Shown: positions 6,096 to 39,659 of the stretch, in pieces
Numbering within the stretch: the first letter of the stretch is position 1
Layout of the letters: each line of letters begins with the position of its first letter
NCBI GenBank assembly: GCA_018969615.1
Contig: JAGWYA010000002.1
Span: forward strand, 3,070 to 67,069
Length of the DNA: 64,000 nucleotides
Source: Patescibacteria group bacterium
Lineage (GTDB): Bacteria; Patescibacteriota; Minisyncoccia; UBA6257; 02-FULL-45-10c
Direction of reading: 5' to 3'
Notes under the pieces: model-generated
Told to the model about the DNA's origin: nothing
The model's input: only the letters and a program-made list of their open reading frames with translations
Database searches by the model: none
Program-made: the position numbers and the translations under genes

Positions 6096-7535
6096 ATGAA
6101 CAAAAATGAGACCGGCGGAGCGTACTTCATCGCTCTCGGCGGCGGCAGCAACATCGGCGCAAAGATGCTCGTCCTGGTCTTTCCGCGGGAAAAGATGATC
6201 TTCATCTTCGACTGCGGCATCGGGATGTTGCCGAAGAACGGCAACGCGGATAACATCTACCTTTCAGATCTCGCGAAGTTCGCTGAGCTGATGGCGATGC
6301 ATCCCGGATTCCGGGTCGTGCTCATGCTCACGCATGCGCATATGGATCACATCGGCGGAGTTCCGCTTCTGAAGAAGCTCTACCCGCAGATCGAGATCCG
6401 CAGCACCGAGCCGACGGCCGGGGTCATGGAAGTGATGTGCCGGGATTCGATCAAGATCCGCAAAGGATCCGATCTGCCCGAACACTACACCGAAGATGAC
6501 CTCGTCAGATGTATAGAGTCCATTCATATCGTCCGGTCGGCTGACTGGATCGATCTGAAGCACAGCGGTTTCATGGTTCGGTTCGAACCCGCAGGTCATA
6601 TCTGCGGAGCCTCGACCGTCCTCGTGAAAACCCCGTACGGGATCTTCGCGGATTCCGGGGACATCAGCTTCTACGACACCACGACGGTTCGGGGTGCCTC
6701 CAAGAAGCTCTTCGACCAAGTTCGGTGGCTGTCGATCGAATCCACGAACGGAGATGTTTCGATCGAGGATCCGGAGACTGTCATGAGCGAGCTGGTGAAG
6801 GCGACTCTCGACATCAAGCGCAATAAAGGGAATAGCCTCATACCCGGATTCGCAAATGGCCGCGGACCGGATGTCGCGATCCGCCTCGGGAGAGAACTGC
6901 AGAAATACGGAATCAATGTGTGGTCAGGCGGGCTTCTCCGTCAAGTTACGGAGAGTCAAAGCAAGGCTCATTGGGGTTCCGATCGCCGCTTCCGGTATTC
7001 TTACCATCGGGGAAAGATGGGGAAACCGGTATTCAACCTGGAGCCTGAGAACGTTCGCTGGGTTCACGGATACAACTTCGGCGATATCGTTGATTCCTCG
7101 GGGAACGTCGTCGTCATTCCGAACGGGATGGTCGAGGCGGGGTACGCTCAGGACTTCCTTTCGGAATGGGCCGGGGACAGACGAAACGGCATCTTCATCG
7201 TCGGCTACCAAGCCGAAGGAACGAAAGGAAGGGAGCTTCTCGGCCTCAAGCCGGGCGGGAAGATCACCCTGACAAGTCCCATCAACGGGCACAGCGAGGA
7301 GATCACAGTGAACGCGACCGTGCGGCAGTTCCGTTTCTCAGGACACGCGGACGGCGACCAGCTCGCCGACTGGGTGCACCGGATGAACACGCACGACGGT
7401 CGTTCGCTCGACAAGATGATCCTGGTGCACGGAAATCCGAACGGACAGGAGGGTTTGCGTCAGAAAGCTCTGGCGCTGCCCAACAGTCCGAAAGAGATCC
7501 TCATCGGGAAAAACTGCGAGATCATCAAGCTGTAA
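6096..7535 (+). CDS. Metallo-beta-lactamase fold hydrolase, beta-CASP (RNase J / CPSF-like) family, divergent
   Basis: 479 aa. HxHxDH motif LTHAHMDHIGG; beta-CASP-type motif VGYQAEGTKGRELLG; C-terminal His (VHGNPNG). SD gaaggagg upstream of the ATG at 6096. Confidence 0.65.
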   Translation: MNKNETGGAYFIALGGGSNIGAKMLVLVFPREKMIFIFDCGIGMLPKNGNADNIYLSDLAKFAELMAMHPGFRVVLMLTHAHMDHIGGVPLLKKLYPQIEIRSTEPTAGVMEVMCRDSIKIRKGSDLPEHYTEDDLVRCIESIHIVRSADWIDLKHSGFMVRFEPAGHICGASTVLVKTPYGIFADSGDISFYDTTTVRGASKKLFDQVRWLSIESTNGDVSIEDPETVMSELVKATLDIKRNKGNSLIPGFANGRGPDVAIRLGRELQKYGINVWSGGLLRQVTESQSKAHWGSDRRFRYSYHRGKMGKPVFNLEPENVRWVHGYNFGDIVDSSGNVVVIPNGMVEAGYAQDFLSEWAGDRRNGIFIVGYQAEGTKGRELLGLKPGGKITLTSPINGHSEEITVNATVRQFRFSGHADGDQLADWVHRMNTHDGRSLDKMILVHGNPNGQEGLRQKALALPNSPKEILIGKNCEIIKL

Positions 7536-7540
7536 CGACA

Positions 7541-7578
7541 AGACCCCATGCACAACGTGTGTATGGGGTCTTTTTTTA
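7541..7578 (+). terminator. Rho-independent terminator (agaccccat ...13 nt... atggggtct + TTTTTTT)
   Basis: Perfect 9-bp stem followed by a 7-T run just after the stop codon at 7533-7535. Confidence 0.75.
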
Positions 7579-7599
7579 TTTTTGTATCATGTATTTCTT

Positions 7600-8000
7600 A
7601 AAAAACAAAAGTGTATTTTTTGGAGCATAAGAACCCGAGGATCTAAAAATACACTTTTGTTGCAACTTTAGGCTTATTCCCGCCTACTGCCCACTGCCTA
7701 CGCGCTACTCCCTACTTGGCGAATGGATTCAGAACCCATTTGCGAAATAGTTTCTAGGCGCGTTGCGAGGAAAAATGGAATAGCTCAAGAAGCAACGACG
7801 AGATCGCAGCATGAGCTGCCTCGAGGAGGAGCAACGAAGGGCTATTCCATTTTAACCGCAACCCACAGGGATAGGGTCAATTTTATTTATACCTTCGTTA
7901 CTCGTCAGAAAGGTAGCTACAGCTACGATTTCTTCCTCGCGCCTTACTCTAAATAAAATTGACCACTATCGCGCCAGTAATCTATTTCGCAAATGGGTTC
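7600..8000. repeat. About 400-nt non-coding region with four nested/serial inverted repeats; candidate structured RNA or decayed element
   Basis: Inverted repeats: caaaagtgtatttttt (7606-7621) / aaaaatacacttttg (7645-7659); aaaatggaatagc (7773-7785) / gctattccatttt (7840-7852); gtcaattttattta (7875-7890) / taaataaaattgac (7953-7966); outer pair gaacccatttgcgaaatag (7734-7752) / ctatttcgcaaatgggttc (7982-8000). The last pair overlaps the final codons of the M23 peptidase gene. Confidence 0.5.
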
Positions 8001-8980
8001 TTGGCCCCATAAACTTCAAAATGCAAATTACATCCCGAAGGCCCGTCATTCTGGCCCGTATCTCCCGTCAGCGCGATCTCCTTTCCTTTCGCCACATAAT
8101 CACCGACCGACACTAAGTTCTTTGAGGTATGCGCATACCGGGTCTTGGTGCCGTTCGGATGGTCGATCAAAATATAATTCCCGTATCCTCCGTTCCATCC
8201 CGAACCAACCACTTCAACGACCAATCCTTCGGCGGCCGCATACACCGGCGTACCGCATGCGTTCGTGATATCAACGGCATTATAGGAATACAACCGCCCG
8301 CCGTTCCAACCCGTCGTCGGGATCGAGAAATATCCAGGCAGGCTCGGCAGGCCGGAAAGCGACGCATAGTTCGTCGATCGCACCGGCCGCCCTCCCGGGA
8401 TGATCAGCGATGACGCGGTCGCGATCTGCGAAGGCACGAAGCCGGGGTTCGCATGAAGGATGCTTTGCACGGAAACATCGTACAGAGCGGCAATGCTGTC
8501 CAGTGTTTCACCGTCCTGTATCTGATGAAGCACGCCGTTCACCGGCAAGATCGTCAACTGCTGTCCCGGACGCAGCACTGACCAGTTAACACCCGTGTTC
8601 GCCCAGATCAATGTGTTCAATGAAATACCGAAGTTCGCCGCAATGATCGATGCCGAGTCGCCGGACTGGACCGTATAAAGCAATACGCCGCCGCGCGTCG
8701 GCACGACGTTGCTCAGCGGATTATCGCTGTTCAACAGCGCCGCACCGCCGACCACGTTCATCGGCGCATCAGTATTGACCGCGATCGCCGCCTCGCTGTC
8801 GATCGGACTTCCCGAATAGAGCGCCGCAGTGTCAGCGCTCAATGCGGCATCAACGGACAGCGGCTGCCCCGAAAGATAGAGCTGCGCCTTCAACGCCTGG
8901 TACCCGCCCGGCGCCGCAAAGATATATTGAGAGACCACAAAGTTCCCGATCGCCATGACCGCAATGAACACGACCGTCAT
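7982..8980 (-). CDS. LysM-domain / M23 family metallopeptidase (cell-wall endopeptidase), membrane-anchored
   Basis: N-terminal TM (MTVVFIAVMAIGNFVV); two LysM-like repeats (YTVQSGDSASIIAANFGISLNTLIWAN; HQIQDGETLDSIAALYDVSVQSILHAN); M23 motifs GGYGNYILIDH and HLHFEV. The ORF track extends to 9289, but that 5' extension overlaps uvrD; the start is placed at ATG 8980 (alternative 8956). Confidence 0.75.
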   Translation of the reverse strand: MTVVFIAVMAIGNFVVSQYIFAAPGGYQALKAQLYLSGQPLSVDAALSADTAALYSGSPIDSEAAIAVNTDAPMNVVGGAALLNSDNPLSNVVPTRGGVLLYTVQSGDSASIIAANFGISLNTLIWANTGVNWSVLRPGQQLTILPVNGVLHQIQDGETLDSIAALYDVSVQSILHANPGFVPSQIATASSLIIPGGRPVRSTNYASLSGLPSLPGYFSIPTTGWNGGRLYSYNAVDITNACGTPVYAAAEGLVVEVVGSGWNGGYGNYILIDHPNGTKTRYAHTSKNLVSVGDYVAKGKEIALTGDTGQNDGPSGCNLHFEVYGAKNPFAK

Positions 8981-9098
8981 CGCGGTCGTCCAATCTTTCA
9001 AAAAAGACGCGAGCGTCCTTGCTTTATGGAGTTGTTGACGTAAGATATCAATAATATCGATAGCGTAGCATGTGCCCCGTGCCCGCTCAATACCACCT

Positions 9099-10955
9099 AT
9101 GCCACAGCGCTCCCATCCTTCACCGCTCAATACAACCCAGGAACAAGCGGTCCGCCATTCCGGAGGACCGCTTTTGATCGCCGCCGGCGCCGGATCGGGA
9201 AAAACGAAAACGCTTACGAGCCGGCTTTTGCATCTTTTGGAGACCGGCGTCGCTCCGCAGGCGATCATTGCGATCACGTTCACCAACAAAGCCGCGAAAG
9301 AAATGAGGTCGAGAATAACGAATAATGAATTAGGAATAACGAACGGGGCGACTGATGAAAAAAAGAGCGGCGTAATTCATAATTCGAAATTCATACTTCC
9401 ATTTATAGGAACGTTCCACGCGCTCGGCGTCCGCATCCTGAAAGAAGAAGCGCACTGGGTGGGACGCACATCACACTTCACGATCTTCGACGACGAGGAT
9501 AGCGCGAGCCTGATCAAATCGATCCTGAAAGAACTGCAGCTCTCCAAGGACCGCTTCAGTCCGTACGCCGTCATCGGCCAGATCTCACGGATCAAGAATG
9601 AATTGATCAATGTCGATGAGTACGCGGACGAAGGCCGCTATGAACACACGATCGCGACCGTCTACCGGAAATATAATGAAACACTCCTGCACAGCAACGC
9701 GTTCGATTTTGACGATCTCATCGAGAAGGTCGTCCGCATCTTCCTTGAGCATCCCGAAGTGCTCGCCAAATACCGCGCCCGCTGGCAGTATGTTCTCGTC
9801 GATGAGTTCCAGGACGTGAACACGAACCAGTACCTGTTCGTAAAACTGCTCGCCCAGGAGCACAAGAACATCTTCGTGATCGGCGACGACGCGCAAAGCA
9901 TCTATGCGTTCCGCGGTTCCGATTTCCGGAACTTCCTCAATTTCGAAAAGGACTGGCCGGATGCGAAGGTGATCCTGCTGACCGAGAACTACCGTTCCAC
10001 GAAAAATATCATCAACGCCGCCTCGGCGCTCATCAAACATAATTCGTTCCAAAAGCCGAAGGATCTCTGGACCAGCAACCCGGAAGGGGAGCTGATCAAC
10101 GTTATGGCGTTCCAGAACGCCGAGGAGGAAGCGGTCTCGGTCGCCCAGCGGGTCCGCGAAGCGCTCGGCGGCGGCGAATCTCCGAAAGAGATCGCGGTCC
10201 TGTACCGTACGAACGCGCAATCCCGCGCGCTCGAGCAATCGCTCATCAGGAACAACATTCCGTACGAGATCTACGGCGGGCTGAAGTTCTATGCCCGCAA
10301 GGAGATCAAGGACATTGTCTCCGCGATCCGGTACGCGTTCAATCCGAAGGACCGCTCCGCGATCGACCGCATCACGAAAACGTTCAATAAAGGCCCGCGC
10401 ATCGCGCTTCTGGAAGCGCTTCCGCGTCTTGCCGAAGAAAGGCTGTCGCTCGTTGAACTGATCCAATATTTCCTTGAAGAGACCCGCTACACCGAATTCC
10501 TCGCCCTTCATTTCAAAAATCCCGATGAACGCCTTGAGAACATCAAAGAACTGATCCAATTTGCCGCGAGCTTCAACGATCCGCATGATTTCATCGAGCA
10601 GGTGACGCTGTTATCCTCGCTCGACGGCCGGCCGAAACTGCAGGAGAACGCGGTGAAACTGATGACGATCCATCTGTCCAAGGGCCTTGAGTTCGACCGC
10701 GTCTTCATCGTCGGCGCGAACGAAGGACTGCTTCCGCATGAACGCTCAATGATAAAGAACGATGACCTCGAAGAAGAGCGGCGCCTGATGTATGTCGCCA
10801 TAACCCGCGCCCGGAAACATCTCACGATCAGCTTTTATGATCTGCCGTCGCGGTTCCTCGGCGAACTGCCGCCGGAACTCATCGCATTCACGAAAGTCAG
10901 CAGTTACGGCGCCGAAACCCGCGACTGGGATGATGAAACGATATACTTAGAATAA
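9099..10955 (+). CDS. uvrD: UvrD/PcrA-type superfamily-1 DNA helicase carrying an in-frame AT-rich insertion between motifs Ia and Ib
   Basis: N-terminus PLNTTQEQAV...LIAAGAGSGKTKTLTSR (Walker A); motifs TFTNKAAKEM, GTFHALGVRIL, VLVDEFQDVN, VIGDDAQSIYAFRG, YRS, VTLLSSLDGRPK...LMTIHLSKGLEFDRVFIVG. The ORF track starts at GTG 9072; ATG 9099 matches the canonical N-terminus. Confidence 0.85.
   Translation: MPQRSHPSPLNTTQEQAVRHSGGPLLIAAGAGSGKTKTLTSRLLHLLETGVAPQAIIAITFTNKAAKEMRSRITNNELGITNGATDEKKSGVIHNSKFILPFIGTFHALGVRILKEEAHWVGRTSHFTIFDDEDSASLIKSILKELQLSKDRFSPYAVIGQISRIKNELINVDEYADEGRYEHTIATVYRKYNETLLHSNAFDFDDLIEKVVRIFLEHPEVLAKYRARWQYVLVDEFQDVNTNQYLFVKLLAQEHKNIFVIGDDAQSIYAFRGSDFRNFLNFEKDWPDAKVILLTENYRSTKNIINAASALIKHNSFQKPKDLWTSNPEGELINVMAFQNAEEEAVSVAQRVREALGGGESPKEIAVLYRTNAQSRALEQSLIRNNIPYEIYGGLKFYARKEIKDIVSAIRYAFNPKDRSAIDRITKTFNKGPRIALLEALPRLAEERLSLVELIQYFLEETRYTEFLALHFKNPDERLENIKELIQFAASFNDPHDFIEQVTLLSSLDGRPKLQENAVKLMTIHLSKGLEFDRVFIVGANEGLLPHERSMIKNDDLEEERRLMYVAITRARKHLTISFYDLPSRFLGELPPELIAFTKVSSYGAETRDWDDETIYLE
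9311..9396 (+). mobile_element. Roughly 87-nt AT-rich MITE-like insertion inside uvrD, in frame (encodes about TNNELGITNGATDEKKSGVIHNSKFILPF); the ends are homologous to the ends of the 10946-11365 cassette
   Basis: Left end gagaataacgaataatgaattaggaataacgaac matches ttagaataaggaagtatgaataaggaatcaggg at 10946. Right end ggcgtaattcataattcgaaattcatac matches ggccgtaattcctaattcgaaattcatg at 11331 (15-nt exact core taattcgaaattcat). Left and right ends are imperfect inverted repeats of each other (acgaataatgaattagg vs reverse complement tcgaattatgaattacg). Confidence 0.5.
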
Positions 10956-11365
10956 GGAAGTATGAATAAGGAATCAGGGAAAATAAGAAACTTTCAGGAC
11001 CTCGATGCATGGAGAGAAGGGCATCTCTTGGTTTTAGAGACCTATAAGGTCACAAAAAAATTCCCCAGGGAAGAAATTTTTGGATTGATAAGTCAGATGC
11101 GGCGGTGCGCGGTATCAATTACTTCTAATATTGCTGAAGGATTCAGTAGGCAGTCCTACAAAGAAAAGTTGCAATTTTATTCAATATCGCAAGGATCGGT
11201 CACTGAACTCCAAAATCAACTGCTTATATCAAAAGATGTGGGCTATATGGACGAAAGTGAATTTCAAAAAATTTCCGAACAGTCGATAAAAGTACATAAG
11301 ATCATAAACGGCCTGATCAGGCATTCTAAGGCCGTAATTCCTAATTCCTAATTCGAAATTCATGA
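10946..11365 (+). mobile_element. About 420-bp AT-rich cassette with imperfect terminal inverted repeats (gaat[a/t]aggaa-type) carrying a four-helix-bundle protein gene; it exactly fills the uvrD-rsmA intergenic space
   Basis: Base composition is visibly lower in GC than both neighbours. The left end contains the uvrD stop codon and the right end abuts the rsmA ATG. Homologous miniature copies lie at 9311-9396 and 37253-37340. Confidence 0.5.
10962..11351 (+). CDS. Four-helix-bundle protein (23S rRNA intervening-sequence protein family / Avd-like, PF05635/TIGR02436-like)
   Basis: 129 aa. SD aaggaag then ATG. Sequence (FQDLDAWREGHLLVLETYKVTKKFPREEIFGLISQMRRCAVSITSNIAEGFSRQSYKEKLQFYSISQGSVTELQNQLLIS) matches the conserved core of this family as I recall it. 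The gene is AT-rich relative to the genome. Confidence 0.7.
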   Translation: MNKESGKIRNFQDLDAWREGHLLVLETYKVTKKFPREEIFGLISQMRRCAVSITSNIAEGFSRQSYKEKLQFYSISQGSVTELQNQLLISKDVGYMDESEFQKISEQSIKVHKIINGLIRHSKAVIPNS

Positions 11366-12183
11366 GCCAATACCTGGGGCAACATTTTCTGAAAAATAAA
11401 ACCGCCGCGCGCAAGATCGTGAACGCGCTTGCCATCAAACCGGGCGATACCGTGATCGAGATCGGCCCGGGCAAAGGAGCGCTGACTGGCGATCTTCATC
11501 GCGCCGTGACGAATGCCAAAGGAAAACTTATCCTTGTCGAGATCGACCGGGATATCGCCGTCACACTTCATGAAAAATATTCATCGGATCCGGTCGTGAA
11601 GATCGTGAACGCCGATGCGCTGACCGCACTGCCTGAGGTCATTGCCGGGCTCGAAGATCGGCCCTACGCCATTATCGGCAATATTCCGTATTACATCACC
11701 GGGAAGCTCCTGCGCACCATCGGCGATCTCCCGCATCTTCCGCAACGCACGGTTCTCATGATCCAAAAAGAAGTTGCGGAACGAGTCTCTGCGCGGCCGC
11801 CTCGCATGAATCTGCTTGCCGCCGCCGTACAGCTGTGGGCTGAACCGAAACTGCTCTTCACGCTCTCTCCGGAGGATTTCGATCCGCCGCCGCAGGTCAA
11901 TTCCGCGGTCATCAGTCTTGGAAACCGCCCGGCGCAAGCCGATGAGCACGATCGTGATGCGTATTACCGCCTGCTCCATATCATCTTCAAGCAGCCGCGG
12001 AAAACCCTTCTCAATAACCTCGCCGAAGGGGCTTCCCAGACAAAATCAGAACTTGAAGAGCTCATCGCACCCCTCGGATACGACCAGAAAACACGCCCCC
12101 AGGAGCTTTCCGTCGACCGGATCAGAACTTTGGCATCACTGTTTAAAGAAAAGGGTATTGAGATCCCCTCTCTCCGTTCATAA
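11362..12183 (+). CDS. rsmA: 16S rRNA (adenine1518/1519-N6)-dimethyltransferase
   Basis: 273 aa; LGQHFL start, SAM-binding VIEIGPGKGALT, conserved NIPY motif (IGNIPYYIT). Confidence 0.9.
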   Translation: MSQYLGQHFLKNKTAARKIVNALAIKPGDTVIEIGPGKGALTGDLHRAVTNAKGKLILVEIDRDIAVTLHEKYSSDPVVKIVNADALTALPEVIAGLEDRPYAIIGNIPYYITGKLLRTIGDLPHLPQRTVLMIQKEVAERVSARPPRMNLLAAAVQLWAEPKLLFTLSPEDFDPPPQVNSAVISLGNRPAQADEHDRDAYYRLLHIIFKQPRKTLLNNLAEGASQTKSELEELIAPLGYDQKTRPQELSVDRIRTLASLFKEKGIEIPSLRS

Positions 12184-20759: not shown

Positions 20760-21128
20760 ATGAATAAAAATGCAAAGATAGGCATTATTGATGCGATCAT
20801 TATGACACTGCTTTGCATCAGTGCAGATGCCGCCCAGATCATTGCTGATCTCAGTATCGCTATTCCAGTTGTCGGTGAGGTACTGCCATTAGCTGCATGG
20901 GCGTATGGGCTTGCCATTTCCGGTATTGTACTTTTTTGGCTTATAATGAAAGGAGTGAGCACGAAGTGGTTCCTTGGGGGAGCGGGTATCGATCTTATAC
21001 CTTTTGTAAATATCTTACCGGGAACTACCGCAGCGATCATTGCAACGATCATCGAGGATAATCTTCCTGAGAAGACAAAAGCAGTGACATCCCTTGTATC
21101 AAAAGCGGTCAATCCATTGGAAAAATAA
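20760..21128 (+). CDS. Small hydrophobic membrane protein (122 aa), possible pilin-like/T4SS subunit
   Basis: ATG 20760 directly after virB4; two long hydrophobic stretches; no signal-peptidase motif recognised. Confidence 0.4.
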   Translation: MNKNAKIGIIDAIIMTLLCISADAAQIIADLSIAIPVVGEVLPLAAWAYGLAISGIVLFWLIMKGVSTKWFLGGAGIDLIPFVNILPGTTAAIIATIIEDNLPEKTKAVTSLVSKAVNPLEK

Positions 21129-21877
21129 TGACGATCATGAGAACTCATACTAAAACCGGATCATTCGCCGCCCATCATCGACTGGCATGGTTTTCGGCTA
21201 TTTTACTGCCTACTGCCTACTGCCTCCTTGCTCTGACAGCAAACGCACAAACCGCTCCCGAGTTCATGGTTAGTTGGAAGGCCCTCGACTATGTTCCTGC
21301 GGACTATATCGGAAAAACATTGCCGACTCAAACGACGCAAGTCGAAGCGGCATTTGATGTGATCGATCAAGGAAAGATCGTCGATGTTTCAAAGAATATG
21401 ATAAATTGGTATGACAACAATGCCCTTATCGCCGCAGGGATAGGATTAAAGACGTTCAAGTTAACCCCCAGCAGCACGCAAAGCGACACCATCCGGATTG
21501 CGGTCTCGAATTATAATGCCAATGGGGATATCTCCACCTCATTTTTGGTCCCGATCGTGAAGCCTGAAGTGGCTGTCAGCGTACCGACACCGACCGCAAA
21601 TCTTTATCGGAACCGCACCGCTCTTGCACCTCAGCCCTATCTCCTTGAAGCCCGGCCTTTCTTTTTCAATGCGACCTCACTCTCCGGACTTACATTCTCT
21701 TGGCAGGTAAACAATACATCACCAACAGGGAATCCGGGAAATCCCAATTTTCTAACGCTTGATCTCTCTTCTCAAGGAACCCCTCAAGAAACCGATATTA
21801 CGCTTTCAGCCGGAGTGACTAATACCGGTAACCAACTCGAACTTGGCAGTCGCATGCTTAATCTTATCGTACAATAA
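21128..21877 (+). CDS. Secreted hypothetical protein; the signal-peptide coding region contains a (TACTGCC)x3 heptanucleotide repeat
   Basis: 249 aa; start overlaps the previous stop (taATG); signal peptide AILLPTAYCLLALTANAQT; heptamer tandem repeat at 21205-21228. Confidence 0.5.
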   Translation: MTIMRTHTKTGSFAAHHRLAWFSAILLPTAYCLLALTANAQTAPEFMVSWKALDYVPADYIGKTLPTQTTQVEAAFDVIDQGKIVDVSKNMINWYDNNALIAAGIGLKTFKLTPSSTQSDTIRIAVSNYNANGDISTSFLVPIVKPEVAVSVPTPTANLYRNRTALAPQPYLLEARPFFFNATSLSGLTFSWQVNNTSPTGNPGNPNFLTLDLSSQGTPQETDITLSAGVTNTGNQLELGSRMLNLIVQ

Positions 21878-36760: not shown

Positions 36761-37276
36761 ATGCGCAGTTCATCGATCCATATGACCCGGCGCTTCGCGG
36801 CCCGGCTGGCAAGGCGGATCCTGAAAAAGGGACCGTTGCGTTCCGGTGCGACGATCGTCGCGCTCCGGGGAGATCTTGGCGCGGGAAAGACGACGTTCAC
36901 TCAGGGGTTCGTGAAAGCGCTCGGCGTGAAGGGGCGGGTGACGAGTCCGACCTTTTTGCTGATGCGGCGGTATGCGCTAAAGAGTCGAAAGTCCCGCCAA
37001 AGGCGAGGCTCCCGCTTCGCAGCGAGGCGAGCGCCAAAGGCGGCAAAGGTCAAAGGTCACATGTTTAAAAATGTCTACCATTTCGACCTCTATCGCATCC
37101 AGCGGGCAAGCGATCTGCAGGCGCTTGAGTTCAATAAGATCATTGCGGAACCGGCGAATATCGTGCTGATCGAATGGCCGGAGCGACTGGGAAAAAAGAA
37201 GCATGCGCATACGGTTCATTTCAAGCACGGAAAAAATGAAAAAGAGCGTGAGATTAGAATTAAGAATACTGAATAG
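36761..37276 (+). CDS. tsaE: tRNA threonylcarbamoyladenosine biosynthesis protein TsaE, with an in-frame insertion of about 25 aa of basic low-complexity sequence
   Basis: P-loop GDLGAGKTTFTQG; SPTFLLMRRY and YHFDLYRI motifs. Between them lies SRKSRQRRGSRFAARRAPKAAKVKGHMF, encoded by GC-rich direct repeats (ccaaaggcg x2, caaaggtca x2). The 3' end and stop codon lie in the AT-rich repeat at 37253-37340. Confidence 0.75.
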   Translation: MRSSSIHMTRRFAARLARRILKKGPLRSGATIVALRGDLGAGKTTFTQGFVKALGVKGRVTSPTFLLMRRYALKSRKSRQRRGSRFAARRAPKAAKVKGHMFKNVYHFDLYRIQRASDLQALEFNKIIAEPANIVLIEWPERLGKKKHAHTVHFKHGKNEKEREIRIKNTE

Positions 37277-37340
37277 TGAATCAGGAACAGGTCCGGTAAT
37301 GCCAGCTTCCTTATTCGCAATTCATGCTTCATAATTCATT
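37253..37340 (+). mobile_element. Roughly 88-nt AT-rich MITE-like copy of the cassette ends (gene-less), between tsaE and the polA 5'-3' exonuclease ORF
   Basis: Left end ttagaattaagaatactgaatagtgaatcaggaa matches ttagaataaggaagtatgaataaggaatcaggga at 10946 (26/34 identical). Right end ggtccggtaatgcc...ttccttattcgcaattcatgcttcataattcatta matches ggccgtaattcctaattcgaaattcatg at 11331. Confidence 0.45.
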
Positions 37341-37344
37341 ATAT

Positions 37345-38211
37345 ATGCGTAAATTCCTTCTCATTGATGCGAACTCATTGATCCACCGGTCGTTCCATGC
37401 GCTGCCGCCGCTGACGACGCCGAAAGGCGAGCCGATCAACGCGGTCTACGGGCTTTCCTCGATCCTGTTGAAATTGATCAAAGACCATCAGCCGGATTAT
37501 GTCGCGGCCGCCTTTGACCGCCCGGAAGCGACTTTCCGCAAAGTGATGTATCAGGAATATAAAGCGCATCGGCCGCCGACCGCGAGCGAGCTGGTATCCC
37601 AGCTGGTGGAGGCGCACCGCACGTTCGAAAAGTTCGGCATTCCGGTCATTGAAAAAGCGGGGCTGGAGGCTGATGATATTGTCGGAACGCTGGCGGAGCA
37701 GATGAAAAAAGAGCCCGATGTGAAAGTGGTTATTTTTTCCGGCGATAAAGATAATCTGCAGCTGATCGACGGCGACCGGGTCGTGGTGGAGCTGTTGAAG
37801 ACCGGCGTGAGCAAGACCGTGACCTATAATGAACCGTTGTTTTTGCAGGAATACGGATTCTCGCCGAAGCAGCTGATCGATTTCAAGGCGCTGATTGGCG
37901 ATACCTCGGATAATATTCCCGGCGTGACCGGCATCGGGCCGAAAGGGGCGACCGATCTGATCCGCGAATACGGAAGCATTGAGAAGATCTATGAGGAGGT
38001 GGGATTGATCGCGAAAGAATCGCTCCGGAAAAAATTGGAAGCGGGGCGGGAGAGCGCGCTCCTTTCCAAGACGCTCGCCACGATCAAGCGCGACGCGGAT
38101 CTGGGCGTTTCACTCGCTGATTTCAGCCAGCATCCGCTGGACCGGGACGGGTTGAGAAAATATTTCGAAGAGCTTGGATTCCGCAGCCTGGTGGAGCGGA
38201 TGTCATCATGA
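37345..38211 (+). CDS. polA: DNA polymerase I 5'-3' exonuclease (FEN-like) domain encoded as a separate ORF
   Basis: MRKFLLIDANSLIHRSFHAL start; conserved Asp clusters (AFDRPEATFR, GLEADDIVGTLA, FSGDKD); H3TH region GIGPKGATDLI. The stop TGA (38209-38211) overlaps the ATG of the next ORF (ATGA). Confidence 0.85.
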   Translation: MRKFLLIDANSLIHRSFHALPPLTTPKGEPINAVYGLSSILLKLIKDHQPDYVAAAFDRPEATFRKVMYQEYKAHRPPTASELVSQLVEAHRTFEKFGIPVIEKAGLEADDIVGTLAEQMKKEPDVKVVIFSGDKDNLQLIDGDRVVVELLKTGVSKTVTYNEPLFLQEYGFSPKQLIDFKALIGDTSDNIPGVTGIGPKGATDLIREYGSIEKIYEEVGLIAKESLRKKLEAGRESALLSKTLATIKRDADLGVSLADFSQHPLDRDGLRKYFEELGFRSLVERMSS

Positions 38212-39659
38212 CCGATTTCGATCTGAAAGAAAAATTTAAAACATTGCGCCGGGAGGGCGCGGCGCTGCCGAAAACCTTTTGCGACCTCGGTGTCGCATTT
38301 TGGCTTTTGAATCCCGACGAGGCGAAGCATGAGCCTGAATATTTGAGCGAACGCTATTTGCATACGAAAAGCATTTCGAAAAAAGCATTGGCGGCATATG
38401 CGGAGAAGAGGCTGAAGGAATATAAGCTTGAAGCTTTGTTCCGCGACGTCGAGCTTCCGCTGATCCCTATCCTTGCGGAGATGGAGCTGAGGGGCATTGC
38501 CGTGGACCGGAAAGCGCTCCAGGCGCTGGACGCTGAACTGGGGAAAAAGATCACGGCGCTCGCAAAGGATATCTACCGCACTGCCGGAGGGCCGTTCAAT
38601 ATCAATTCGCCGAAACAGCTGGGGCAGATCCTTTTTGAAAAATTAGCGATCAGCGGAGAGGGGGTCAAAAAGACCAAGGGCGGTGCCGTCTCCACGAACA
38701 TTGATACGCTGATGACGATCAAGGAGCGGCATCCGATCGTGAAGTACATTCTTGAATATCGCGAGTTGTTTAAATTGCAGTCGACGTACGTGAAGCCGCT
38801 CCAGGAACTGGCGGATACGAACGGCCGCGTGCACACGACCTATCTCCAGACCGGAACTTCGACGGGGCGGCTCAGCTCGCAGAACCCGAATCTGCAGAAC
38901 ATCCCTACAGGCGGCGAGTGGGCAAATCGCGTACGAAGCGTCTTTGTCCCTGAGAAAGGGTACGCATTCGTTTCGTTTGATTATTCGCAGATCGAACTGC
39001 GCGTGCTTGCATCGTTATGCGGCGATCCGCAGATGATCAAGGCGTTCACTGAAGGCGCCGACATTCACCGGCTGACCGCGGCAAACGTGTTCAATGTGCC
39101 GATCGCGAACGTGACGCCGGAGATGCGGCGTTTGGCAAAGACCCTGAACTTCGGCGTCGTGTACGGCATGGGGGCGCAGGCGTTCGCGAAAACGAGCGGG
39201 CTGAGCTTTACCGAAGCCAAGAAATTCATCGATGAATATTTCCATGATTTCGCCCAAGTGAAGACCTGGCAGGAAGAGATCAAGGCTTTTGCGCGGACGC
39301 ATGGGTATGTCGTGAACCGGAACGGCCGCCGGCGGCTGCTTTTGCACGCGACCTCGATGTTCCGCGGCGAGGCGGCGGAAGCGGAGCGTGCGGCGATCAA
39401 TATGCCGGTCCAGGGATTGGCGGCGGATATCGTGAAGATCGCCATGGTGAACGTCGCAGCCGAGATCCGCAGGCGAAAATGGGATGATGCGGTGCGGATG
39501 CTGCTGACGATCCACGATGAATTGTTGTTCGAGGTCAGGAAGGATATACTAAAAGAAGCGATCGGCGTCATTCAGCCGATCATGGAGCGTGCGTATACGC
39601 TTGAAGTGCCGTTGACCGTCAATGTAAAGACGGGAACGACCTGGGGTGACCTCGCGTGA
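38208..39659 (+). CDS. polA: DNA polymerase I polymerase (family A palm/fingers) domain; no 3'-5' exonuclease domain evident
   Basis: 483 aa; motif A (VSFDYSQIELRVLA), motif B (RRLAKTLNFGVVYGMGAQAFA), motif C (IHDELLFEV). Confidence 0.85.
   Translation: MTDFDLKEKFKTLRREGAALPKTFCDLGVAFWLLNPDEAKHEPEYLSERYLHTKSISKKALAAYAEKRLKEYKLEALFRDVELPLIPILAEMELRGIAVDRKALQALDAELGKKITALAKDIYRTAGGPFNINSPKQLGQILFEKLAISGEGVKKTKGGAVSTNIDTLMTIKERHPIVKYILEYRELFKLQSTYVKPLQELADTNGRVHTTYLQTGTSTGRLSSQNPNLQNIPTGGEWANRVRSVFVPEKGYAFVSFDYSQIELRVLASLCGDPQMIKAFTEGADIHRLTAANVFNVPIANVTPEMRRLAKTLNFGVVYGMGAQAFAKTSGLSFTEAKKFIDEYFHDFAQVKTWQEEIKAFARTHGYVVNRNGRRRLLLHATSMFRGEAAEAERAAINMPVQGLAADIVKIAMVNVAAEIRRRKWDDAVRMLLTIHDELLFEVRKDILKEAIGVIQPIMERAYTLEVPLTVNVKTGTTWGDLA

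Follow-up and report, generated by a model that had tools for sequence, protein, structure and literature searches.

We analysed a 64,000-nt window of one metagenome-assembled genome (MAG) contig from an uncultured Patescibacteria (candidate phyla radiation, CPR) bacterium and found, within the coding sequence of its uvrD/pcrA-type helicase gene, a palindrome made of two inverted arrays of 7-nt units. This stretch belongs to a sequence family that also brackets the open reading frame (ORF) of a four-helix-bundle (4HB) protein between uvrD and ksgA. Elements of the same kind occupy the same site in relatives, similar hairpins lie in frame in other housekeeping genes, and the cassette at the uvrD/ksgA junction is polymorphic both in its presence and in its cargo. 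We consider it probable that the uvrD stretch is a tolerated, translated, ORF-less member of a heptamer-hairpin family that resembles the 23S rRNA intervening sequences (IVS) and the STRR (short tandemly repeated repetitive) sequences.

A palindrome of heptamer arrays lies in the uvrD reading frame

The host gene is intact. Its product is a 618-aa NCBI protein (100% identity to MBU6141779.1) with both helicase domains (PF00580, 282 bits; PF13361, 227 bits), and helicase motifs I, Ia and the rest are preserved; the longest ORF begins at the GTG at 9072. The element spans 9312-9399 and forms a palindrome of about 90 nt, in which two inverted arrays of about four GAATNNN heptamers each enclose a 27-nt centre. 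It is located in domain 1A, between the motif-Ia helix (TFTNKAAKEM) and the GTFH strand. The gene and the parts of the element are the following.

9099..10955, + strand: uvrD/pcrA-type SF1 helicase gene, host of the element (PF00580, PF13361, match to PcrA 1PJR)
9313..9344, + strand: left arm of the uvrD element, GAATAAC GAATAAT GAATTAG GAATAAC GAAC; encodes (R)ITNNELGITN; Tandem Repeats Finder (TRF) period 7, 4.4 copies
9345..9371, + strand: centre of the uvrD element, GGGGCGACTGATGAAAAAAAGAGCGGC, 27 nt; encodes GATDEKKSG; unpaired in the RNA fold
9372..9399, + strand: right arm of the uvrD element, GTAATTC ATAATTC GAAATTC ATACTTC; encodes VIHNSKFIL; inverted relative to the left arm; TRF period 7

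An initial annotation of this DNA had pointed to an AT-rich extra stretch between motif Ia and GTFH, and both composition and alignment confirmed it. In 200-nt windows, GC falls to 0.45 over 9200-9399 against about 0.55 around it, and the loop codons have a GC of 0.34 compared with 0.54 for the whole gene. When the product was aligned with PcrA 1PJR (E 1e-136), the sole large gap in domain 1A was the insert, with 17 residues. The linker has 37 residues here, whereas among 79 distant UvrD/PcrA genes, taken as the outgroup for linker length from the genome-collection matches listed (all at no more than 51% identity), it has 20-21 residues in 59 and at most 29.

The same annotation had described the two ends of the stretch as inverted repeats of each other and as homologous to the ends of the downstream cassette, including a 15-nt exact match, and these claims held in alignments with shuffled controls. 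The arms are 85% complementary across 20 nt, and in Smith-Waterman comparison of arm against arm only 1 of 2000 dinucleotide shuffles attained the score. The left arm matches the left end of the cassette at 22/26 positions and the right arm matches the right end at 21/22, with none of 2000 shuffles attaining the score for either pair. In the whole window there are two exact copies of the shared 15-mer, TAATTCGAAATTCAT, one at 9380-9394 and the other at 11349-11363. Beyond what had been described, both uvrD arms are arrays of 7-nt units, and a further copy of the element lies at 37256-37339.

We then considered the reading frame. It is open, and in all lineages examined the lengths differ by multiples of three. 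Because 7 mod 3 = 1, successive heptamers fall in all three phases, and runs of identical GAATAAT or ATAATTC units would hold stops in every frame. The unit in the GAA-TNN phase is GAATTAG in the window, which avoids a TAA stop, and GAATCAG or GAAATAA in the homologous element of a relative (locus L081); the right-arm unit in the would-be TAA position is GAAATTC or AAAATTC. Thus, the substitutions among the uvrD heptamers are those needed for an open frame, and stop-creating variants are avoided. An AlphaFold2 model from a 66-sequence alignment gave a confident helicase (mean predicted local distance difference test, pLDDT, 82.7), in which residues 77-97 were coil with pLDDT <50 between the helix at 63-75 and the strand at 102-105. 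The insert would therefore most plausibly be a tolerated, translated and disordered surface loop, with ITNNELGITNGATDEK as its predicted tryptic peptide. The earlier description of a frame-preserving, translated surface loop thus stands for the frame and the intact protein, while its translation is a prediction from the open frame and the model.

An intein or intron was rejected, as the insert comprises 27 aa, lacks splicing motifs and leaves the frame open. Separately, a 990-aa UvrD homologue (P0095) carries Hint/intein Pfam domains (PF01079, PF14890), a different type of in-frame selfish insert. An assembly artefact was also rejected, since the same structure is present in the independent assemblies L081, L088, L211 and L212.

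The same uvrD site is repeatedly occupied in relatives

We extracted the linker from 120 UvrD homologues. It is hypervariable, ranging from 15 to 64 residues in 113 close homologues and reaching 30 or more in 33 of them. GAAT-type palindromes were found at exactly the same uvrD site in L081 (78% UvrD identity), L088 (62%), L212 (55%) and L211 (53%), while the linker of L083 holds a decayed palindrome and that of L210 a one-armed array. Among the protein sequences, a similar loop type was present in P0002, P0010, P0030 and P0094, partial in P0007 and P0013, and absent in the sister lineages P0003, P0004 and P0006. The uvrD linker is therefore repeatedly occupied by such palindromes in this Patescibacteria clade. 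The initial annotation had proposed an orthologue alignment to see whether the loop is lineage-specific; it is not private to this genome, being shared in type with relatives at 53-78% identity and missing from P0003, P0004 and P0006. In L086 (4110-4235, and also in L087) the same linker holds a palindrome of another heptamer (GACAATT x5 ... GGTCAAx inverted), and the neighbouring 4HB cassette of these two loci has GAAT-type arms with a duplicated left end.

The closest array-free relatives, L082 and L085 (76-77% identity), have a near-canonical linker with 15 residues past Arg-Ile (VEASKNDRSFVMPFI / VLASKNDPSFIMPFI). Compared with them, the window has 81 nt in place of 36 nt, so that the insertion, initially put at about 87 nt, amounts to a net gain of 45 nt (15 aa). 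The L085 linker keeps a one-unit palindrome, GAATGAT-CCG-TCATTC. In a neighbour-joining tree of the helicase cores the order was (window,(P0002,(P0006,(P0003,P0004)))), which fits either an ancestral element that was later reduced in the P0003/P0004/P0006 branch or repeated hits at the uvrD site.

Both uvrD arms matched the L081 uvrD element best (scores 45 and 52, compared with 32 and 39 for the local cassette), and unrelated metagenome hairpins scored as high as the local cassette against them. Judged from these scores, the similarity between the uvrD element and the local cassette is family-level and not that of parent and offspring. The earlier view of the stretch as a miniature of the cassette ends therefore survives in one sense, as an ORF-less version of the arms that bracket the 4HB gene, and fails in another, as a recent copy of the downstream cassette. 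When the window is compared with L081, the loop shows a third-codon-position identity of 0.70, and the remainder of uvrD one of 0.445. One candidate compensatory pair, C9319:G9386 in the window against T:A in L081, was found in one pairing register; as it is a single pair and heptamer arrays can pair in several registers, it is only a hint.

The ORF-bearing form is a 4HB cassette at the uvrD/ksgA junction

The cassette whose ends resemble the uvrD arms consists of the following parts.

10949..10978, + strand: left arm of the cassette, AGAATAAG GAAGTAT GAATAAG GAATCAG GG; overlaps the uvrD stop (10953-10955) and the 4HB start (10962)
10962..11351, + strand: four-helix-bundle / 23S-rRNA-IVS-protein gene, 129 aa (PF05635, TIGR02436); cargo in the loop of the long hairpin
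11333..11363, + strand: right arm of the cassette, CGTAATTC CTAATTC CTAATTC GAAATTC AT; holds the 4HB stop and abuts the ksgA ATG (11362); TRF period 7, 100%

The 4HB protein, identical to MBU6141780.1, scored far above the family cut-offs (PF05635, 128.7 bits against 33.8; TIGR02436, 119 bits against 24), and its nearest solved structure was PDB 2GSC (E 8e-21). In the minimum free energy (MFE) RNA fold the cassette ends pair and close a stem around the ORF. GC at third codon positions is 0.42 in the 4HB gene, far below the 0.71 of uvrD and 0.63 of ksgA, with comparable gaps in L085 and L086, and the cassette is therefore compositionally foreign.

Homologous arms were found upstream of the 4HB ORF in L085, L086, L087, L088 and L089, and at six loci the arms reach into both the start and the stop codon of the 4HB gene. 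Among the 120 closest 4HB homologues, most start with MN.ES/LGK and end with ..IIHNS, that is, with arm-encoded termini. The uvrD loop peptide, ..TNNELGI..VIHNSKF.., matches these N- and C-terminal peptides, as expected for arms without cargo.

The junction is polymorphic. The window and L085-L089 have the 4HB cassette there, and L082, L210 and L211 have no cassette. In L083 (2384-2840) and also in L084, the junction carries a PDDEXK_3 (PF13366) ORF between inverted repeats of about 31 nt (AATACGAATA...ACGAACACC), a different cargo in the slot that 4HB occupies in the window. In L081 (1891-2017), the nearest relative with the uvrD element, the place of the 4HB cassette is taken by an ORF-less array. 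The right arm of this array has expanded to at least 13 units and continues up to the end of the contig, and assemblies are therefore probably broken by arrays of this type. Downstream of ksgA, the loci L083, L087 and L088 share a conserved cluster of TrbL-, PrgI-, TraC/VirB4- and TraG-like genes next to uvrD-ksgA, and in L087 and L088 PDDEXK_3 cassettes are scattered through it. On unrelated contigs, 4HB ORFs flanked by such heptamer arrays were seen in L120 and L165.

Other copies in the window

The pattern GAATN3GAATN3GAAT with one mismatch matched 15 times in the window against 0.96 expected, and all 15 matches are confined to three elements, namely those in uvrD, at the 4HB cassette and at 37256-37339. 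Period-7 arrays with any core numbered 8, against 0.75 in shuffles. The third element is listed here.

37256..37339, + strand: second ORF-less mini element (mini2), between tsaE and the polA 5'-3' exonuclease gene

From the left arm of mini2 come the final codons and the TAG stop of tsaE, and none of 2000 shuffles attained the score of the mini2 arms against the cassette ends. As RNA, mini2 folds better than the uvrD copy (-25 kcal/mol, z -2.8). The adjoining DNA polymerase I is split into two ORFs with a 4-nt overlap, one for the 5'-3' exonuclease (37324..38211) and one for the polymerase domain (38208..39659).

Several other repeats were observed in the window. An intergenic heptamer array with a different, CCTACTG-like core lies at 7683-7716. 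At 21204-21225, three TACTGCC units within the ORF at 21128..21877 encode LLPTAYCLL of an apparent signal/transmembrane segment and may be a further heptamer array in frame, one that belongs to a different family. Nested inverted repeats are dense in the spacer before the 3' end of a LysM/M23 peptidase gene (7600-8001): a 32-nt repeat at 7731-7762 / 7970-8001 (88% complementary), whose right arm spans the last codons of the peptidase gene; two perfect nested repeats, one at 7772-7784/7841-7853 and one at 7875-7889/7950-7964; and a 17-nt repeat, also perfect, at 7604-7620/7645-7661. Rfam gave no family for the inverted repeats at 7600-8001. For the hairpins of the element family, no Rfam family was found at the gathering threshold, nor at a permissive threshold over 7500-11500, and a promoter/terminator scan of 9000-11600 gave no signal beyond shuffles.

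Similar hairpins recur in metagenomes

We scanned metagenomes for three GAATNNN units, a gap of 8-38 nt and three inverted units, and recovered at least 120 loci on contigs with a GC of 0.34-0.70. Each hairpin has its own variable triplets, yet its two arms agree: among the matches listed, the fraction of right-arm triplets with a complement in the left arm was 0.50 within elements and 0.084 between elements, for which the maximum in 200 permutations was 0.132. The matches listed have about four units per arm and a median MFE z of -6.

Of the 120 listed hairpins, 19 have a frame without stops that extends for at least 60 codons on either side. Pfam placed such hairpins inside an IleRS-type catalytic domain, a ValRS anticodon-binding domain, a RecG DEAD domain and a MiaA IPPT domain, and another was found within the N-terminal part of a type IIG restriction-modification enzyme. 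These hairpins encode peptides of the same kind, for example GIMNNESGTNNHNSKFIIHNS. In L172 (4143-5615), a hairpin stands in an open frame between SpoU methylase and HAD hydrolase domains and may have fused two genes through read-through of an intergenic element.

Contigs of the IMG/VR database gave 85 matches to the same pattern, with 3-4 copies on several contigs. Units are shared in a contig-specific manner: GAATGCA in L261 and L271, GAATTAA/T in L265, L283 and L285, and GAATTAC in L245 and L252. Since copies within a contig share units and centres, these multi-copy hairpins are dispersed repeat families.

We looked for target-site duplications and saw none at the uvrD element in comparison with L082 and L085. 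Around the 120 listed hairpins, the direct repeat had a length of 0 in 76 cases, 1 in 36, 2 in 7 and 4 in 1, figures to be read with the fuzziness of the hairpin ends, which means that short duplications are not wholly excluded.

Relation to known repeat and IVS systems

The closest design is that of the 23S rRNA IVS. In Coxiella burnetii, an S23p (4HB) ORF lies in the loop of a 28-bp stem that terminal inverted repeats form, with 3-4 tandem heptamers (GACAGAT), strain-variable in number, just upstream of the ATG, and the IVS is excised by RNase III, for which IVS stems are substrates (PMC4990558). Insertions in CPR rRNA also carry 23S_rRNA_IVP ORFs (PMC11270868). Like the Coxiella and Leptospira IVS, the cassette has a PF05635-family ORF in the loop of a long stem and heptamers before the ATG, and heptamer number varies and ORF-less short forms occur in both (PMC4990558). 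The location differs: the present elements are not in helix 25 or 45 of 23S rRNA, as the window contains no rRNA, and they reside in uvrD, at the uvrD/ksgA junction and between tsaE and polA. The heptamer core is GAATNNN here compared with GACAGAT in Coxiella, and excision by RNase III would be destructive in these mRNAs.

In its behaviour, the uvrD element resembles the Rickettsia palindromic elements (RPE), with which it shares in-frame, non-disruptive residence in conserved genes (uvrD here; IleRS, ValRS, RecG and MiaA in the metagenomes). RPE, from the work of Ogata and colleagues in 2000, are said to be dispersed palindromes that lie in frame in housekeeping genes and are translated as surface segments. 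They are 100-150 nt long, lack the construction from 7-nt units, and are not known to have an ORF-bearing counterpart or a transposase. The phyla are unrelated; given the heptamer periodicity, homology with RPE is unlikely, and the likeness is one of behaviour.

STRR sequences are described for heterocystous cyanobacteria with other consensus units, and, by the title of a 1997 study by Vioque, they reportedly also occur inside rnpB, a functional RNA gene. Tandem 7-bp units in hairpin-capable inverted arrays are common to STRR and to the present elements, but the host here is a Patescibacteria bacterium and the units are GAATNNN. In cyanobacteria the 7-bp tandem repeats form hairpins between genes (PMC2670836). 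A literature search of a limited collection returned no report that connects STRR with 4HB cassettes or places them in frame within protein genes.

With MITEs (miniature inverted-repeat transposable elements) and with repetitive extragenic palindromic (REP) sequences and their REPIN hairpins, the family shares short, multi-copy, non-coding, host-specific sequences with inverted repeats. Terminal inverted repeats and dispersed copies are present, with three copies in the window and further multi-copy contigs. However, no target-site duplication was seen, nor a parent bearing a transposase or a REP-associated tyrosine transposase (RAYT), and the arms are periodic arrays, not a single terminal repeat. 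At the examined loci, no transposase-encoding parent with the same ends was found, and the ORF-bearing relatives encode 4HB or PDDEXK_3. These elements are therefore not classical MITEs: the earlier designation of the insert as a MITE is right for the architecture (inverted repeats, multiple copies), but not for the mechanism, given the missing target-site duplication and a 4HB protein in place of a transposase.

In the limited collection searched, we found no report that ties these phenomena together or that records elements of this kind in the coding genes of CPR bacteria, which is not proof of novelty; searches on the heptamer strings and on the mobility of 4HB/IVS proteins also returned no description of this element class.

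Alternative explanations

One alternative derives the uvrD insert from the cassette 1.5 kb downstream, as a fresh copy with an internal deletion that a transposase acting on shared terminal inverted repeats moved in the manner of a MITE. The 15-nt exact match and the three copies in 64 kb speak for it, as does the TTCGAAATTCAT variant, which is common only to the cassette of the window and its uvrD mini element while the cassettes of other genomes have TTCTAAATTC or TTCTTAATTC. We regard such a recent copy as very unlikely, however, since both arms are closest to the L081 uvrD element, the same loop type extends to relatives at 53% UvrD identity, target-site duplications are lacking both at uvrD and among the 120 listed hairpins, and the cargo is a 4HB protein. 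The arrays could also have grown in place, by slippage of local heptamers seeded by native GAAT codons (AGA-ATx of Arg-Ile; GAA-TAA at the uvrD stop), with convergence producing the likeness to the cassette ends. Unit number is indeed unstable (at least 13 at the L081 junction, a duplicated left end in L086/L087, strain variation in Coxiella), one-armed arrays such as that of L210 exist, arrays start exactly at native codons readable as GAAT, and even the 'empty' L085 linker holds the one-unit palindrome. Slippage does not account for two inverted arms around a unique centre, and it leaves unexplained the plan of left arm, centre and right arm shared with mini2 and the cassette, the covarying arms over at least 120 elements and the families with shared centres within one contig, so that in-situ microsatellite growth seems highly improbable to us.

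A functional role is also conceivable, in which the hairpin of the uvrD mRNA is kept as a regulator, be it an RNase III site as in rRNA IVS, a pause or a stability element, or in which the loop serves the protein. Conserved third positions in AT-rich arms within a GC-rich gene, the pair-keeping difference from L081 in one register, the occupation of the linker by palindromes in many lineages and the RNase III sensitivity of IVS stems (PMC4990558) are in line with this. Against a cis-element stand a weak fold that is not clearly above shuffles, a site that varies by lineage (different heptamer families, one-armed arrays, no array), a loop peptide that is unconserved and predicted to be disordered, and the absence of the element from the closest relatives L082 and L085; on balance, we think a function unlikely. 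That the element escapes translation, through RNA excision or through bypassing by the ribosome of the sort known from T4 gene 60 and from mitochondrial 'byp' elements, is barely credible. It would suit a hairpin inside a coding sequence whose relatives are excised from rRNA, but every case examined has an open frame and a length that is a multiple of three, and the frame in use specifically avoids heptamer variants that create stops, which would be needless if the segment were skipped. To our knowledge, moreover, bacteria have no ligation step that follows RNase III cleavage.

Some observations also weigh against our preferred interpretation of the uvrD stretch as a tolerated, translated member of the heptamer-hairpin family. 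The uvrD copy forms a weak RNA hairpin (-18.4 kcal/mol, z -1.6; equalled by 12 of 200 shuffles), so its structure may no longer matter there, and coding constraints may be causing it to decay. Although their arms are conserved, the uvrD elements of the window and of L081 have unrelated centres, and the higher third-position identity in the loop could come partly from shared AT-richness. On the present sequences, shared ancestry is inseparable from repeated insertion at a hotspot. The metagenome scan imposed the GAAT core, and the apparent universality of GAAT is therefore partly a product of the search design. No mobilising enzyme was identified among the ORF-bearing relatives and the cassette of the window. 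Finally, translation of the loop is predicted from the open frame, stop avoidance and the AlphaFold2 model.

Proposed mechanism and implications

For a member of the heptamer-hairpin family, we propose the following course of events. The ORF-bearing form is that of the neighbouring cassette, with a 4HB (S23p / 23S_rRNA_IVP) gene in the hairpin loop. The uvrD element would be transcribed and translated through, giving a loop about 15-17 residues beyond the canonical linker with little effect on the helicase. It may already have been present in the ancestor shared with the L081 lineage and been reduced to a stub in the P0003/P0004/P0006 lineage. A force acting at the nucleotide level would keep the arms family-like, for which gene conversion from other copies and selection on the hairpin are candidates.

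Spread is probably hairpin-dependent and acts in trans: the covarying arms, together with the lack of target-site duplications and of a transposase, argue for such a process, and transposition of the classical cut-and-paste type is unlikely. The arrays start precisely at points where GAAT can be read in native codons (AGA-ATx in Ser-Arg-Ile; GAA-TAA/TAG at the uvrD stop), which is compatible with homology-assisted insertion or conversion. A role of the Avd-like 4HB protein in spread is speculation. More broadly, the inverted arrays of GAAT heptamers might mark, in cis, a single large class of selfish hairpin cassettes, for the most part undescribed, across many bacterial phyla, for which rRNA IVS, STRR and the in-frame palindromic peptides of core genes (UvrD, RecG, aminoacyl-tRNA synthetases, MiaA) would all be landing sites, and the pentameric Avd-like 4HB protein that these cassettes often carry might recognise the 7-nt-periodic arms (about 4-5 units per arm) and aid maintenance or spread; we offer this only tentatively and would not count on it.

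In-frame selfish palindromes, known mainly from Rickettsia, are now seen in a Patescibacteria bacterium, and their behaviour is tied to an element family whose ORF-bearing form has the design of the 23S rRNA IVS. This gives a concrete handle on two old questions, the function of the S23p/4HB IVS protein and the movement of IVS-like elements, in the form of a cis-motif of 7-nt-periodic GAAT arrays with covarying arms, a presence/absence polymorphism at uvrD/ksgA and natural ORF-less derivatives. Such arrays enlarge and diversify the loops of core proteins, and they can mislead alignment, annotation and structure prediction.

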